Shown here: positions 10,266 through 63,239 of the stretch, piece by piece
Layout: each line of letters starts with the position of its first letter
Position numbering within the stretch: position 1 is the first letter of the stretch
Origin: Octopus vulgaris
Taxonomy: Eukaryota
Reading direction: 5' to 3'
Assembly (NCBI GenBank): GCA_951406725.2
Contig: OX597835.1
Location: 6,138,001-6,202,000 of the forward strand
DNA: 64,000 nucleotides
Position numbers and translations under genes: made by a program
The notes under the pieces: model-generated
Told to the model about the DNA's origin: nothing
Seen by the model: the letters and a program-made list of their open reading frames with translations, nothing else
Databases searched by the model: none

Positions 10266-10773
10266 TTAAAAAAAAAATTAAAGATGGCACAGATGGTATG
10301 TCACGCGATCAGTACGATGCTTCTTAGAACACTCCCTTCCTTTGAGAATCTAGAATAGAATCTAAATGTATGAATACATACGATCTACATGCTATAGCTG
10401 TAGAATGATTTGAACTCGTCGCTTCAAGCTCACGAAACACTCATCAGCGTTGAAGTGCTGCGACGGATTGGCAAAATCTTTTGAGTGGTATTTGGGTGCG
10501 AATCTATATTCTCTGAGTTCAAATCACACTGAGTTACATACAGACTTTCATCTGAATTGGATCGATGAAATGAAGCACCAGTCAAGTGCAAAGATTATCC
10601 TCACTGATTTGACCCTTTTCTCAAAAGGTACGGCTTTGAAACCTACACCAGAAATCATAGAAAAGAAATTACCAATTTTTCTGTAGTTTATAGTGGTGAG
10701 TTATTCCTATAAATATGGTACCTATTTTGCCTTTGATAGACTCTTCCATTTGGCAATTAATCGGTTTAAATGT

Positions 10774-10814
<41 letters not shown>

Positions 10815-10867
10815 GCTACGATAAAGAGAAAAGGATTTATTTTATTGAAACTTGTTTAGAGAGGAAA

Positions 10868-11713
10868 ATGTCTTCGTGTTTAGAAAGGAACGGCGCAGAA
10901 ACAAGTTTGGAAGGTCCGTTTCCGTTACCAGTTGGTTATTTTGAATATGTATTATTAGCAATGTCCAAAAATTTCAAGAGAGGTTTTAATGAAGTGAGGG
11001 CTTCTTTAAATCAATTGAAATACGAAGAAAACATTCCACTGACTCAAACCATAGAATTCGCCATTTTGCATTTGTTAATCAACACGCCCTATTATTGTAC
11101 ACTCGAGAGAAATTTGCTGACCGATATTTTTCTATATCTCCCCCCTTCCGATCTCAATTGTACTCCAAGTATTTTAGACCTCACCGAATTTGTGATCCTG
11201 CGAACATCTAATCACATGCGTCGAATTACGCAGCAGATTCTTCACCCAAAACATAATGTATGCACGATCACTTTGGTGTATTTAAAGTTGGACATTCTTG
11301 ACTTCATTAGAAATCGAATTTGGGAACGGTTTCGGAACAGGCTGCTTCATCCAGGCTTCGAAGAAATCCTTTACTACCAAGAAATCCGTTCAAATAATAT
11401 CACAATAGCCTTAAGTAAAGCGCAGCTGAGTTCAGTCCACAAAGATATCGAAGATATGATGATCACTTTTCAGGAATGCATAAATTTTCTTTGGAACACT
11501 CGACACATTCTTCCTCCATTAATAGTCGACCACTTGGAATCTCACCCTGACAACTGGACCTTAAGTACTATTCAGCTTTTTCATGAGACGTACCGAGATT
11601 TACTCTTTCCGCCTTTTGACACCAATATGGCGCCAATTAGGTATGATTTCGCTTCTATTTCTAGAAGGTTGTACCACCACTTAGGGGTTCCCCTCATTGG
11701 TCCTATGTATTAG
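10868..11713 (+). CDS. Orphan uninterrupted ORF, 281 aa from ATG 10868 (MSSCLERNG...GPMY), family unknown; frame continues to TGA at 11920
   Basis: 846 stop-free nt of complex sequence in AT-rich DNA, with globular-protein-like composition. AAAATG start context, TATAAA at 10708-10713, AATAAA at 12057-12062. The supplied ATG at 10715 reads through a (CA)n(TA)n microsatellite and is less plausible. Confidence 0.6.
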   Translation: MSSCLERNGAETSLEGPFPLPVGYFEYVLLAMSKNFKRGFNEVRASLNQLKYEENIPLTQTIEFAILHLLINTPYYCTLERNLLTDIFLYLPPSDLNCTPSILDLTEFVILRTSNHMRRITQQILHPKHNVCTITLVYLKLDILDFIRNRIWERFRNRLLHPGFEEILYYQEIRSNNITIALSKAQLSSVHKDIEDMMITFQECINFLWNTRHILPPLIVDHLESHPDNWTLSTIQLFHETYRDLLFPPFDTNMAPIRYDFASISRRLYHHLGVPLIGPMY

Positions 11714-20525: not shown

Positions 20526-21130
20526 AGATATTTCAATACCCGACAAGTGAATACTAACGTAGTTGGATACGTGTTTCCAACATCACCAGTCACTAATTCA
20601 CTGTCATTCCGACGGCGATAGTAGTGAGAAGGGAGTGCCAATACATTGAGGCAAAGCAAATATCTAGAACGACTTTAATTAAATTAAAACTGAGAAAGAA
20701 AGTAAAATTACCGGATTTTTTTGCCTTTGAACGACAGATCGAGAAATTAATTTTTTTGTAACTAAACATTTTCAAACTTCGGACACTGGTAGAATGTTTC
20801 AGATAACACATCTTTTACGCTTAGTGTTATTGAGAAAAGTTTATATTTTCAAAGTTATTTCGTGTTAAAGTAGTCGTATTTCGGTAATTTCAACCAATCA
20901 ATGACGTGTATTCAGCTGAATAAAATTACTGCCGTTGTTTGTCAACAACAATCTCAACAACACCAGTGTCCGATGTTTGAAAGTCTTTAGTTATAAAAGA
21001 TGAATTTCTCGATCTGCTGTTTAAAGGGTTAAAGATCCAAATTACCTTCAAAGACACTAAACTTTTGGCGTTACCTATTTGGTATACTTGAATACGTACC
21101 AGGAGCTCTACGTTAAATAGGTTTATATAG

Positions 21131-24237: not shown

Positions 24238-24464
24238 GGTAAAAACGGTAAGATAACAAAAGAAAAAAGAGACCTCAATATCATGTAAATAGAGGAAATT
24301 TATCTATAAAATAATATGTTACAATTACTCAATAGTAATATAACGGTATTTTTTCATAGCATTTTTCAGATGGCCAGATAACCGAAGAGATGGTGTTGTG
24401 GATTTCCACTTCGGCATCTGAAACTCAGAGTTTTATCTTGACTATTGAGTAATTGTAACATATC

Positions 24465-24468
<4 letters not shown>
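24238..24468. mobile_element. Penelope-like remnant: 23-bp inverted repeats around a degenerate hammerhead motif; the left part recurs at 23268-23352
   Basis: ATATGTTACAATTACTCAATAGT (24314-24336) / ACTATTGAGTAATTGTAACATAT (24441-24463); AGATAA-CCGAAGA...GAAACTCAGAGTT|TTATCT at 24376-24438. Confidence 0.55.
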
Positions 24469-24507
<39 letters not shown>

Positions 24508-40493: not shown

Positions 40494-40879
40494 TTTTATA
40501 AATATATATAAGGTGGTGCTTCAGCATGGCCTCTGTCTAACGGCTGAAACAAGTAAATAATATTTAACGTGTATATATATATAATATGGGTGGCTTATTA
40601 GCAATTTAACAACTTAAAGGTTTGCCCTCTTGTGATAGTGGGTCAGTTCGACCATTATTTCTAACAAAGCCGGTACCACTTAATACCCTCTGTCACTTTA
40701 GTGACGTCTGTATATATATATAACCAAGAAAAAAACAACAAGAATGTTGCTTTTTTCTTGGTTATAATCAACCCATATATTTTTATGGTTAACACCATAA
40801 AGAATTCTGGTGCATCTAAGTTAAGCACCATATTCATTTGAATTTATTTGAATTCATTTGAATCTTAATTGTTTTGCTG

Positions 40880-54940: not shown

Positions 54941-55526
54941 GGTGCTAGGAAAATACGGTCCCGGAAAATTATGTTCCGGAAAATTCGGTCCCTATAAAGT
55001 TGGTCCCAGACAATCTTTCAAATCGGTGTCCGGTCATTTCGCCCACTATGGAGTCTTGTTAGCCCACGCATCATTTCCAATTTTAAGAAACCCTAATATG
55101 GCTGCAAAATATTTTAAAAGTGAAAAAAAACAAAGACAAATTGATTGATGAACTTAATTATGTTTACGACTTTCATAACTTTAGCTCCGATGCGACAAAG
55201 AAAACGTGGCGCTGTGAGATTCGCAACACATGTTGTGTTCGTGTTCATACAAAGAATAAACCAGGTGAACCTATAATTATTTCAACAATTAATAGTCATG
55301 ATCACGAATCAGCACCGAATGAAGTGGAAGCACGATTCGCCATTTCAGCATTAAGAAAAAAGTTGCGCAGGAGTGGCTGTGTGGTAAGTAGCTTGTTTAC
55401 CAACCACATGGTTCCGGGTTCAGTCCCATTGCGTGGCACCTTGGGCAAGTGTCTTCTACTATTGCCTCGGGCCGACCAAAGCCTTGTGAGTGGATTTGGT
55501 AGACGGAAACTGAAAAGAAGCCTGTC

Positions 55527-55595
<69 letters not shown>

Positions 55596-56165
55596 CGTGT
55601 GTGTGTTTGTGTGTCTGTGTTTGTCCCCCTAATATTGCTTGACAACCAATGCTGGTGTGTTTATGTCCCCGTTACTTAGCGGTTCGGCAAAAGAGACCGA
55701 TAGAATAAGTACTGGGCTTACAAAAGAATAAGTCCCGGGGTCGAGTTGCTCGATTAAAGGCGGTGCTCCAGCATGGCCGCAGTCAAATGACTGAAACAAG
55801 TAAAAGAGTAAAAGAGTAAAGAGATGGAGTTGAAACAAGTACACGAGTTCTCATTTCAGAAACGACAAATAATATTAGTGAGAATGCGAAATATGAATCA
55901 CCACGGCTACAAACAGTTTCCAGGAGTATTACAAACTCGTGCGATAAAGATTTTGGCGCTCCACCGTTGCCTTTTCATCGAACTGGATTTCAAGTGCCTG
56001 ATTTGTTTAAATACTTGGAAGGCGGGGATTTGTTCCAGCAGTGCGGCACAAGCTGTAATGATGAAAAGAGGATTTTAATTTTTGCCTCTAACGAAGGTCT
56101 TCAACAACTGGAAAACACCTAATTTTTTAGGAATGCATGGCACATTTAAATCATCACCAAGTGCA
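54941..56165 (+). mobile_element. MULE (Mutator-like) transposon remnant: FLYWCH finger and start of the DDE domain, split by a SINE
   Basis: GG-starting end with GGAAAAT..GGTCCC subterminal repeats. From ATG 55098: KLIDELNYVYDFH...TWRCEIRNTCCVRVHT...HDHE (FLYWCH). After the SINE: ...RILIFASNEGLQQLENT*FLGMHGTFKSSP (decayed DGTF motif). Confidence 0.85.
55364..55822 (+). mobile_element. Young-looking family B SINE inserted in the MULE transposase
   Basis: Intact head, long internal (TA)n, (TAAAAGAG)n tail. Confidence 0.92.
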
Positions 56166-60670: not shown

Positions 60671-61245
60671 TCGTCTTCCTCCATTATCGTTAAAAATGTC
60701 GACGTCGTCATCATTGATATACCATCTCCCACTCCTTCTCGACACACTCTAGCAAAGGACACCATTAACCATTTAGCGACCTCCCCTGTTCACGTTCTGA
60801 AGGACTCAATACTGAACACTACGTGTTACTGTTGTTGCTGTTGTGCTTGTAAGCATCGCCCTCGTTGTTATTGTTGTTGTTGTTCTTGTCCTTGTAGTCA
60901 TCGACACGGTTTTTCCACATTTACAAGTAAAATTCATTTAGATTCATTTCGCCGTGCAATTATTTTTACAATTTGAAAAACAAAAAAGGTTAACCCAGCA
61001 GAGTTCATTGAAAGACAGGGGCAAACAAATAATGTTTTATTAGAAACACCAGAACACTTCCAAATGGGTGCAATTGATTGTCCGCATCCTGCTGAGTTAT
61101 ACTTTTTCTTTCCAAATTTTTCAAATTGTAATGGGAATTTATGAACGCTTTGTATATACGCTGTTGATAGTCCAGTTACTGCGGTATTTGTCCTGAGATA
61201 ACATCTCTCCTGATCGTATTTTGTTCCTAACACAATAAATATAAA

Positions 61246-61451
61246 GTATTATAGCCATCTCAATATGGCTGACCACAAAGGGGGGGGGGGATGTTACTGT
61301 ATCTTTTTAGCCCCAGGAGATCATCGACTCCAGCTGATCTCCTGGGGCTAAAAAGCTACAGTAACCTTTGAGGTTAGCCATATTGAGATGGCTAAAATAC
61401 TTTACATTGTCGAGCGATTACTGTTTACATCTCGTTCTGAGATTTAATAAT
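61246..61451 (+). mobile_element. Fold-back insertion 1: ~70-bp inverted arms, 47-bp tail, 14-bp TSD
   Basis: Arms 61242-61323 / 61335-61404; direct repeat ACAATAAATATAAA at 61232-61245 and 61452-61465. Confidence 0.8.
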
Positions 61452-61930
61452 ACAATAAATATAAATTTTTACATACGCCATCTTTTCATGCATTTGTGAT
61501 GTTTCCTGGGATTATTAGATGTCAAAGATCTTTTAACACTCAGGCACCCGCAGCCAGCTGACCCAAGCGACCCAACCAATACATGGAATATAAAGGTTTA
61601 CAGTAAAATCTTGTGCTATCAATGACAAAGGTGTTCACATCAGAATCACATACAGTTTTATTCTCCAGGGCCTTGTTATTTGACTGACACTCCCATTTAC
61701 TCTTACCTTGCAGACATAGGATCTTTAAAACCTTCAGCATATTAAACCAATTACATTTTTCAAATATGAAATAATTTAATGAAATCAGATCCACACTTTC
61801 GTTTGAGATACGAGTACATTTAAATAAATCTCTCATACGAGTATATTCTATCAGGTTTTCAAGTTTCGTGCTAGTATATTTTATTTTTCCATTTTCAACT
61901 TCGTTACCGAGTTAATAATTTTAACTATAA

Positions 61931-62212
61931 GAAATATTGAATTTCTAAATCTCTCGTAGAGACATGTACGGTGGTGGGGCGATAGAATGGTTGTATACTG
62001 TCAATCTAATAAGAACGTGACAGTAGGGGGTACACCACCGCTGTATAGCCCTAGGAAGCATCGAACGCCTCCTGATGGCTTTGACACAAATGTATATAAG
62101 GACACAGGGAAAAATGTCAAAGCCATCAGGAGGCATTCGATGCTTCCTAGGGCTATACAGCGGTAGTGTACCCCCTACTGTCACGTTCTTATTAGATTGA
62201 CAGTATACAACC
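61931..62212 (-). mobile_element. Fold-back insertion 2: 99-bp inverted arms (2 mismatches), 57-bp tail, 14-bp TSD
   Basis: Arms 61988-62086 / 62115-62213; direct repeat AATTTTAACTATAA at 61917-61930 and 62213-62226. Confidence 0.85.
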
Positions 62213-62950
62213 AATTTTAACTATAAAATTCATTTATGCATAAAGCAACAGAGCTCTCACCCTGCGAGCCATTGTTTTCCCAACCATTATAATTTCTCTA
62301 CTCTGTAGAGAAATTATGTAATGCATTTCAGAGATAATAAACAACAGTTGCTGATAACCTTGGAACATTCATTATTATTGGGTTCTATCTTTAACCCAAT
62401 TAATTTAATCATTTTAAACCTAGCTTCAGTTTTTATGTTTCTAATAAAACTCATATTAAACTCTATTAAATTTATGCTCCATTAAACTTTATGTTAGTGT
62501 AGTTAATTTTTCATCAGTAGCTGAGTTTTAGTTCTAATTTAACTGATTATTTAGCTACAAAGACAAGAATTTATTCTAGATTATTCGATAGCATAACTTT
62601 TATTGATTTACGAGAATATTTTATCTTTTACTTGTTGCAGTCATTAGGCTGCGCCATGTTGGAGTAACGCCTTGTAGAATGTTTTGGTCGAATGAATCAT
62701 ACTTATTTTTATTAAGTACTTACTTTTTGTTAAATCTGGTATTTATTCTATCTATATACATGCATATATGAGTACAGGACATCAAAAAAACGTTGAACAC
62801 AATAAGAAGCGAAAACATAAAAACAAACACATAGAAACGAACTTTTTTCAAAACAACGAAAAGAACAGAGTACAAGACATACAACACAAGGAATATTCCC
62901 CCTTCTTCAGTTGTCCCTGTTTCATCTACTCCGCGTTTCGAAGGTAAGTC

Positions 62951-63190
62951 TTTTCCAGCTGGCTACGGACACATGGTCTGTGTCTGTATACTGTGAGAAG
63001 AGAATAACAAACTACTTTTAAATCTCTGAGCGAGAAATAAGTTGTTACAGTACCGTACAGTAAAGTCTATGTTCCAATGCAACGTGGTAGTCCTGCCTAG
63101 GACAATGTTACTACTATTTAGTCCCAGGAAAATATTTTTTTCCAGCCGGCTACCGGCACATGATCTGTGTCTGTATACTGCGAGCAAGGG
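62951..63190. repeat. ~50-bp direct repeat pair related to the fold-back element motif
   Basis: TTTTCCAGC.GGCTAC.G.CACATG.TCTGTGTCTGTATACTG.GAG at 62951 and 63138. Confidence 0.7.
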
Positions 63191-63239
63191 AATCTACTGC
63201 TCCCTTTCTAGCTGTAGCGATACCTGTAGCCAATAAGAA

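Follow-up and report, generated by a model that had tools for sequence, protein, structure and literature searches.

Two well-preserved hairpin inserts in the octopus genome come from two related retrozyme families and show a published Penelope-like layout

Two neighbouring hairpin-and-tail inserts in the window, the whole 64,000-nucleotide stretch of Octopus vulgaris DNA analysed here, are real and well-preserved insertions of two related retrozyme families (A and B) in the layout published for Penelope-like elements (PLEs). Each insert, with a probability that we put at nearly nine in ten, consists of two 5'-truncated copies of a 3' end, set head to head between target-site duplications (TSDs) and likely written by a reverse transcriptase (RT) and GIY-YIG endonuclease borrowed from a PLE. 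The layout has already been published for PLEs and the A and B inserts themselves are mostly ordinary.

A preliminary description had reported one architecture in two neighbours of opposite orientation. Both indeed have long arms and a one-sided tail of 44-57 nt, with the tail on the right in element 1 (61232-61465) and on the left in element 2 (61917-62226). Their parts, and a further relative nearby, are as follows.

61232..61245, no strand: element 1, left copy of the 14-bp TSD, ACAATAAATATAAA; site empty in organism E, net 220 bp shorter
61246..61336, minus strand: element 1, tail-less arm, inverted family A monomer from about 221 to 312; 88% to L046:1622-1976
61335..61451, plus strand: element 1, arm with the tail, covering 234-355 of the family A monomer up to the long (T) site; 93%
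61408..61451, plus strand: element 1, tail of 44 nt, the interval between the two fixed end sites of family A (end-site histogram)
61429..61443, plus strand: element 1, mini stem-loop of the tail (61429-61446 including the trailing TTA)
61452..61465, no strand: element 1, right copy of the 14-bp TSD, ACAATAAATATAAA
61917..61930, no strand: element 2, left copy of the 14-bp TSD, AATTTTAACTATAA; the empty site of organism E skips exactly 296 bp
61931..62088, minus strand: element 2, tailed arm, family B monomer from 204 to about 361; 97% to L012:1792-2155
61931..61987, minus strand: element 2, tail of 57 nt; the end-site interval of family B is 53 nt
61946..61962, minus strand: element 2, mini stem-loop of the tail, then TTTA
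62090..62212, plus strand: element 2, tail-less arm, family B monomer from 178 to about 304
62213..62226, no strand: element 2, right copy of the 14-bp TSD, AATTTTAACTATAA
63018..63209, minus strand: relative of family A, older and further diverged, spanning monomer 163-351 and ending with the tail; absent from the preliminary description

Arms of 70 and 99 bp had been given. The larger figure is exact, the stem of element 2 (61988-62086/62115-62213) having 99-nt arms that are 98% complementary. The smaller is not, as element 1 pairs over 44 and 31 nt (91% and 97%) with a 12-nt bulge between, making about 75 bp and not a clean 70. The tail-less arm of element 1 stops at the short (S) site, has an expanded G run inside and holds 13 bases that are missing from the tailed arm; in element 2 the tail-less arm holds 26 nt (monomer 178-203) missing from its partner. 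Each tail carries the mini stem-loop first noted, with its TTA or TTTA. Both elements lack an ORF and are truncated downstream of the hammerhead motif of their source monomers. Without the promoter-like and ribozyme half, the window copies are most likely dead.

Both sites were found empty in a related organism (E), in all three of its DNA runs, with contigs joining the flanks directly. At element 2, position 61915 is joined to 62212, skipping 296 bp, which is the spacing of the TSD copies. At element 1, the joint runs from 61217 to 61444 and has 6 other letters in it, so that 220 bp are missing on balance, again the TSD-copy spacing. Because organism E joins the flanks without an insert, both window elements are true insertions; and as the perfect 14-bp repeats lose one copy's worth of length at the empty sites, the TSDs first reported are genuine. 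In all four of the runs X1, X2, X6 and X8 (closer organisms or samples), contigs pass from unique flank into the element, and no empty-site joint occurs among the joints listed for them. Judged by those joints, the insertions are thus probably older than the corresponding splits. Elsewhere in the genome, a direct repeat of at least 10 bp flanks 23 of 29 inverted copies lying outside microsatellites, against 2 of 812 mismatched flank pairs; the TSD measures 8-16 bp in 25 of these 29 and is 82% A+T. One copy lies inside a host repeat, the only one of 42 insertions comparable in this way, and three empty paralogues hold its 14-mer once.

Repeats of organism E match 61299-61355, 61413-61469 and 61926-61982, that is, the tails and part of an element 1 arm and hardly the arms of element 2. 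This suggests that the tail may be the best-conserved part across species. In depth profiles, other high-copy repeats flank both elements (62620-62950 and 61151-61242).

Searches of the genome (2.8 Gb, 227 contigs) with each insert returned 1890 and 3207 first-look candidates, which are not copy numbers, and the best 40 of each were scored; copies found with whole inserts as queries were chosen for likeness to the window layout. The source of element 1 is a 354-bp monomer (family A) and that of element 2 a monomer of about 365 bp (family B), both forming head-to-tail partial tandems. Each monomer has a TA-rich, TATA-like stretch, followed by a type I hammerhead motif at about 97-145 and by the region seen in the window. 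Six-frame translation of the monomers revealed no long reading frame. The preliminary description had noted the lack of a tRNA head, and ARAGORN predicted no tRNA gene in any of the four monomer loci, although a decayed head could escape such detection; a tRNA-derived SINE was rejected on this result.

Families A and B are collinear along the whole monomer, and some 180 nt of their 3' halves align with a score of 59, against 23 ± 3 and a maximum of 37 in 200 shuffles. The arm motif common to elements 1 and 2 is real and is explained by this homology. The relative at 63018-63209 reached a local alignment score of 79 (23 ± 3, maximum 37, in 200 shuffles), and with a partial repeat near 62950-63005 beside it, it apparently forms a partial tandem. 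A third family, C, is homologous to A and younger, with a 353-bp unit and 98% identical copies on many contigs (L169:1305-1860, L174-L202). It has a canonical CUGACGA core, forms arrays of at least five units, ends at the same two sites and is the best candidate among the families for tests of ribozyme cleavage and circular RNA. In the A and B insertions, arms exceeding one unit (22 of 146) would fit a circular RNA or a multimeric transcript equally. Run X17, guessed to be RNA, gave only short family-matching contigs with no unique flank.

Against the Rfam model Hammerhead_HH9, family A scored 35 bits (E 3.7e-5 and 2.3e-5), under the gathering cut-off of 52. Of its cores, 33/41 read UUGA(U/C)AA, the U3-A8 variant known from PLE hammerheads (PMC4209133); stem II shows paired, covarying changes and loop III remains palindromic (CGCG/UGCA). 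The family B motif was recognised by pattern alone. Its cores are CCGAUGA in 42 of 43 cases, with C at core position 4, and neither of two monomer loci matched Rfam at E<=0.05, so the predicted ribozyme activity of family B is doubtful. Truncation points at the 5' side do not cluster at the predicted hammerhead cut site, and their pile-up at monomer 170-250 is biased by the queries used. Rfam miRNA matches were dismissed, as they lie in microsatellites and generic hairpins. With non-coding tandem units of 354 and about 365 bp, TSDs above 4 bp, and no LTR, PBS or tRNA head, the A and B monomers are, by sequence, non-LTR retrozymes, i.e. non-autonomous PLEs with a predicted hammerhead.

A census of 120 loci minus 10 duplicates gave 110 insertions, 83 of them inverted and 27 without any inversion. 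One short (tail-less) and one tailed end are paired in 74 of the 83; nine have a damaged end and none has two ends alike. The asymmetric hairpin and tail, with a TSD varying from 8 to 16 bp, is thus kept in many copies. The same pair of ends was present in 25 of 30 insertions from the ribozyme-half query sets, which imposed no selection for ends. Outward ends fall at two fixed sites, 309-314 (about 311) and 353-355 (about 355) in family A and about 310 and 363 in family B, and the tail is the 44-53 nt interval between them. The tail, first described as unique, therefore belongs to a high-copy monomer, of which it is the fixed 3' end.

Junctions were counted in 73 of the 74 short/tailed insertions, leaving out one with more than one inversion. 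These contain 70 distinct junctions, two of which recur (three and two times). The thrice-seen junction joins different subfamilies (L023 versus L004/L009), indicating a hot spot. Arms extend from about 40 nt to more than 800 nt (over two units), full monomers and tandems included. In 50 of the 73 insertions, both window elements among them, each arm has some sequence that its partner lacks; the end-unbiased sets gave 14 of 24. Flanks of (TA)n or (TAA)n accompany 21/55 family A and 43/55 family B insertions (64/110 in all), as a raw, uncorrected share.

How such inserts are written is suggested by their strands. Followed inward from its flank, either strand opens in antisense to the RNA, the pattern that would arise if a cDNA had been primed at both 3' ends of a staggered cut. 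We consider it probable that the inserts arise by a staggered cut of 8-16 nt, two-ended cDNA priming at different start sites, early stopping, and joining with fill-in. The endonuclease would make the cut in AT-rich DNA and each 3' end there would prime one cDNA, one per RT start site. Both cDNAs would stop early, leaving 5'-truncated arms, and would then join via a few complementary bases before fill-in. A junction overlap of at least 1 nt was seen in 43 of 73 insertions, an approximate count taken from BLAST ends. LINE-1 twin priming is a known precedent in which both target strands prime cDNA, the products are joined by microhomology and the TSD is kept. It gives an inversion of non-overlapping parts of the RNA and a poly(A) end, whereas in families A and B one 3' region is copied into both arms, starting at two fixed sites, and an inverted duplication with no poly(A) results.

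The two arms of a copy usually agree at polymorphic sites, with discordance in only 9 of 155 comparisons in family A and 4 of 136 in family B, against 52 and 46 expected from random pairing. Taken together, the 50 of 73 insertions whose arms are no self-copies, the inward antisense starts and the arm concordance point to two-ended priming, possibly on one RNA. That both cDNAs are usually copied from the same RNA molecule is a tentative reading, to which we give slightly less than even odds. Somewhat more speculative is the extension of this rule to PLE integration as such, with the inner start site priming one strand, the outer site of the same transcript priming the other, and the second cDNA displacing the first before the two are joined. 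We found no statement of the one-RNA two-ended model in the literature searched.

Priming could also be two-ended on two RNAs, with the likeness of the arms owed to conversion or to one dominant source locus; this is a serious competitor, though we think it somewhat less likely than not. Concordance could indeed also reflect later conversion between arms, or activity of one subfamily or source locus at a time, and some copies (L007, L036 and L054 among them) have discordant arms. The predicted PLE dimer, moreover, extends both strands in vitro (PMC11167929). Against two RNAs, concordance is some six- to eleven-fold above random pairing, and at position 62010 both arms of element 2 carry a base present in only about 0.3% of contig depth. 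Two RNAs alone also do not explain why one end is short and the other tailed.

Self-priming, in which one cDNA (or antisense template) folds back and copies itself into the inverted arm, is the published proposal (PMC3846280). It would account for the alleles common to the arms within a copy, and its geometry fits 23 of 73 insertions, including several near-symmetric palindromic junctions. It is nevertheless unlikely, because the mutually missing arm sequence in the other 50 lies beyond what one folded cDNA can supply and because the fixed stop of the second end, which matches the published pair of RT start sites, is left unexplained. Of the fold-back by a LINE or Penelope RT first suggested, a Penelope-type RT thus remains likely, but a self-copying cDNA is ruled out in these 50 insertions, the two window elements among them.

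The preliminary description had preferred to see the hairpin and tail themselves as mobile, in the form of a non-autonomous retroposon with a long double-stranded hairpin for its RNA. The layout and rough size common to many copies and the two recurring junctions speak for this idea, but it is very improbable given 70 distinct junctions among 73, the thrice-seen one crossing subfamilies, arms as variable as those above and 27 of 110 insertions without inversion. The hairpin is made anew each time from a 354-365 nt source. Despite their long inverted repeats, a MITE, foldback DNA transposon or Helentron-type (HINE/DINE-1-like) rolling-circle element can be set aside almost entirely, as the TSD varies over 8-16 bp and one terminus lacks the last 44-53 nt; a MITE or other TIR DNA transposon, which needs matching termini and a fixed short TSD, is ruled out by the same two features. 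Helentron derivatives do have a 3' stem-loop beside a T-rich end that resembles the tail. None of these classes is known for strong truncation at the 5' side, for tandems arranged head to tail or for a hammerhead motif. The original view that the elements were retroposed and are not MITEs is borne out by the variable long TSDs, the 5' truncation and the one-sided tail.

Published PLE traits include an inverted 5'-truncated copy, a one-sided tail of 30-40 bp, a long TSD and a microsatellite bias (PMC8557442, PMC3846280), and the window inserts match this described Penelope pLTR at the level of layout, one of the outcomes that the preliminary description had named as refuting its reading. Insertions of endonuclease-bearing PLEs such as Pen2a_Av share with families A and B the head-to-head pLTR arrangement, one-sided tail, 5' truncation, partial tandems and microsatellite bias (PMC3846280, PMC8557442). 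The TSD of Pen2a_Av-type rotifer elements is 8-10 bp, compared with about 8-16 bp in families A and B. Unlike the Pen2a_Av type, the A and B source is non-coding, the tail is 44-53 nt against the printed 30-40, and the window copies are minimal (about 200-280 bp) with neither ORF nor ribozyme.

Retrozymes have been argued to be non-autonomous PLE derivatives (10.64898/2026.07.22.740005). Animal non-LTR retrozymes resemble families A and B in their head-to-tail monomers (350-390 bp in mussel, 354-365 bp here), type I hammerhead with a short helix III, lack of an ORF, TSD above 4 bp and co-occurrence with autonomous PLEs (PMC7229834, 10.64898/2026.07.22.740005). The C at core position 4 in family B is unusual among them. 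Circular RNA and cleavage have been shown for some published retrozyme families, whereas A and B are known from sequence. Tandems and monomers are reported in the accessible text of the animal retrozyme papers; inverted short/tailed insertions are not described there, and the word "inverted" is absent from that of PMC7229834. The octopus genome repeat annotation (PMC13282606) gives Penelope-like families and, in its accessible part, does not describe the hairpins, although its library may name them.

The closest biochemical parallel to two fixed ends is Poseidon of the green anole. Work in vitro showed that its tail is the stretch separating two internal start sites of the RT, and that the enzyme both cuts AT-rich DNA and extends it on either strand (PMC11167929). 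Like the end sites of families A and B, both start sites lie 3' of the hammerhead, and the targets are again AT-rich. Poseidon differs in being autonomous, with an ORF that starts in the pLTR. In its accessible text, the study does not pair either start site with a strand, leaves the inversion unexplained, and leaves open the steps of PLE integration after priming (PMC11167929).

The host genome does contain PLEs with RT and GIY-YIG domains in open, intact-looking 781-aa frames. By inspection, their cysteine-rich linker is of the Neptune/Nematis type; these PLEs have a U3-A8 hammerhead motif of their own and likewise pair a short with a tailed end. A partner was sought by a Pfam GIY-YIG genome search (best 150 of 6136 first-look candidates scored), by BLAST with either monomer as query (word size 7) and by an additional family C search. 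None of the 52 GIY-YIG loci examined (32 stretches and 20 search loci, partly overlapping) carried an A or B terminus, nor thus an autonomous RT element with the same tail, so we can only infer the mobilising PLE enzyme. Two apparent links were rejected. A 74% match at L145 lies 1.3 kb past the PLE stop, beyond the element's end and unrelated DNA, and family C copies beside PLE fragments (L145, L169 and L179) look like separate insertions.

Several other elements were seen during these searches. A high-copy PLE with many open 781-aa RT and GIY-YIG frames (L141:2745-5090, L142-L144, L148) has probably been active recently; it also has an upstream frame of about 480 aa with no clear Pfam family, CCAAT/TGACG-rich promoter-like repeats in its 3' region and a U3-A8 hammerhead motif. 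A second PLE family (L145:4806-5480) has a 3' hammerhead-like motif, identified by eye, which shares the C at core position 4 with family B. Another hammerhead-bearing element (L079:27-291), whose stem II and 3' end resemble those of family B, sits in (TA)n near a PLE copy. Within the window, a plus-strand frame at 55087-55632 encodes a FLYWCH zinc finger (E 2.5e-6) and is interrupted by a short repeat; it is likely a remnant of a Mutator-type transposase. The 337-codon stop-free frame at 10700-11713 (plus strand) had no Pfam match at E<=0.01. Inverted-repeat elements at 20713-21038, 24298-24479 and 40719-40766, with arms of 47-78 bp, are unrelated to families A-C by BLAST and possibly MITE-like.

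Repeat pipelines can misfile hairpins of this kind under MITEs or unknown repeats, although retrozyme families produced them. Families A and B, each with thousands of candidate loci, supply young, abundant, non-coding copies that form a large sample for the steps of PLE integration that follow priming. If true, the one-RNA two-ended rule would account at once for a tail on one side, the inversion, a TSD that stays intact and the common arm alleles, and would replace the published self-priming proposal. Stems of 75-99 bp could also serve as substrates for ADAR or Dicer if they are transcribed within an intron or UTR.
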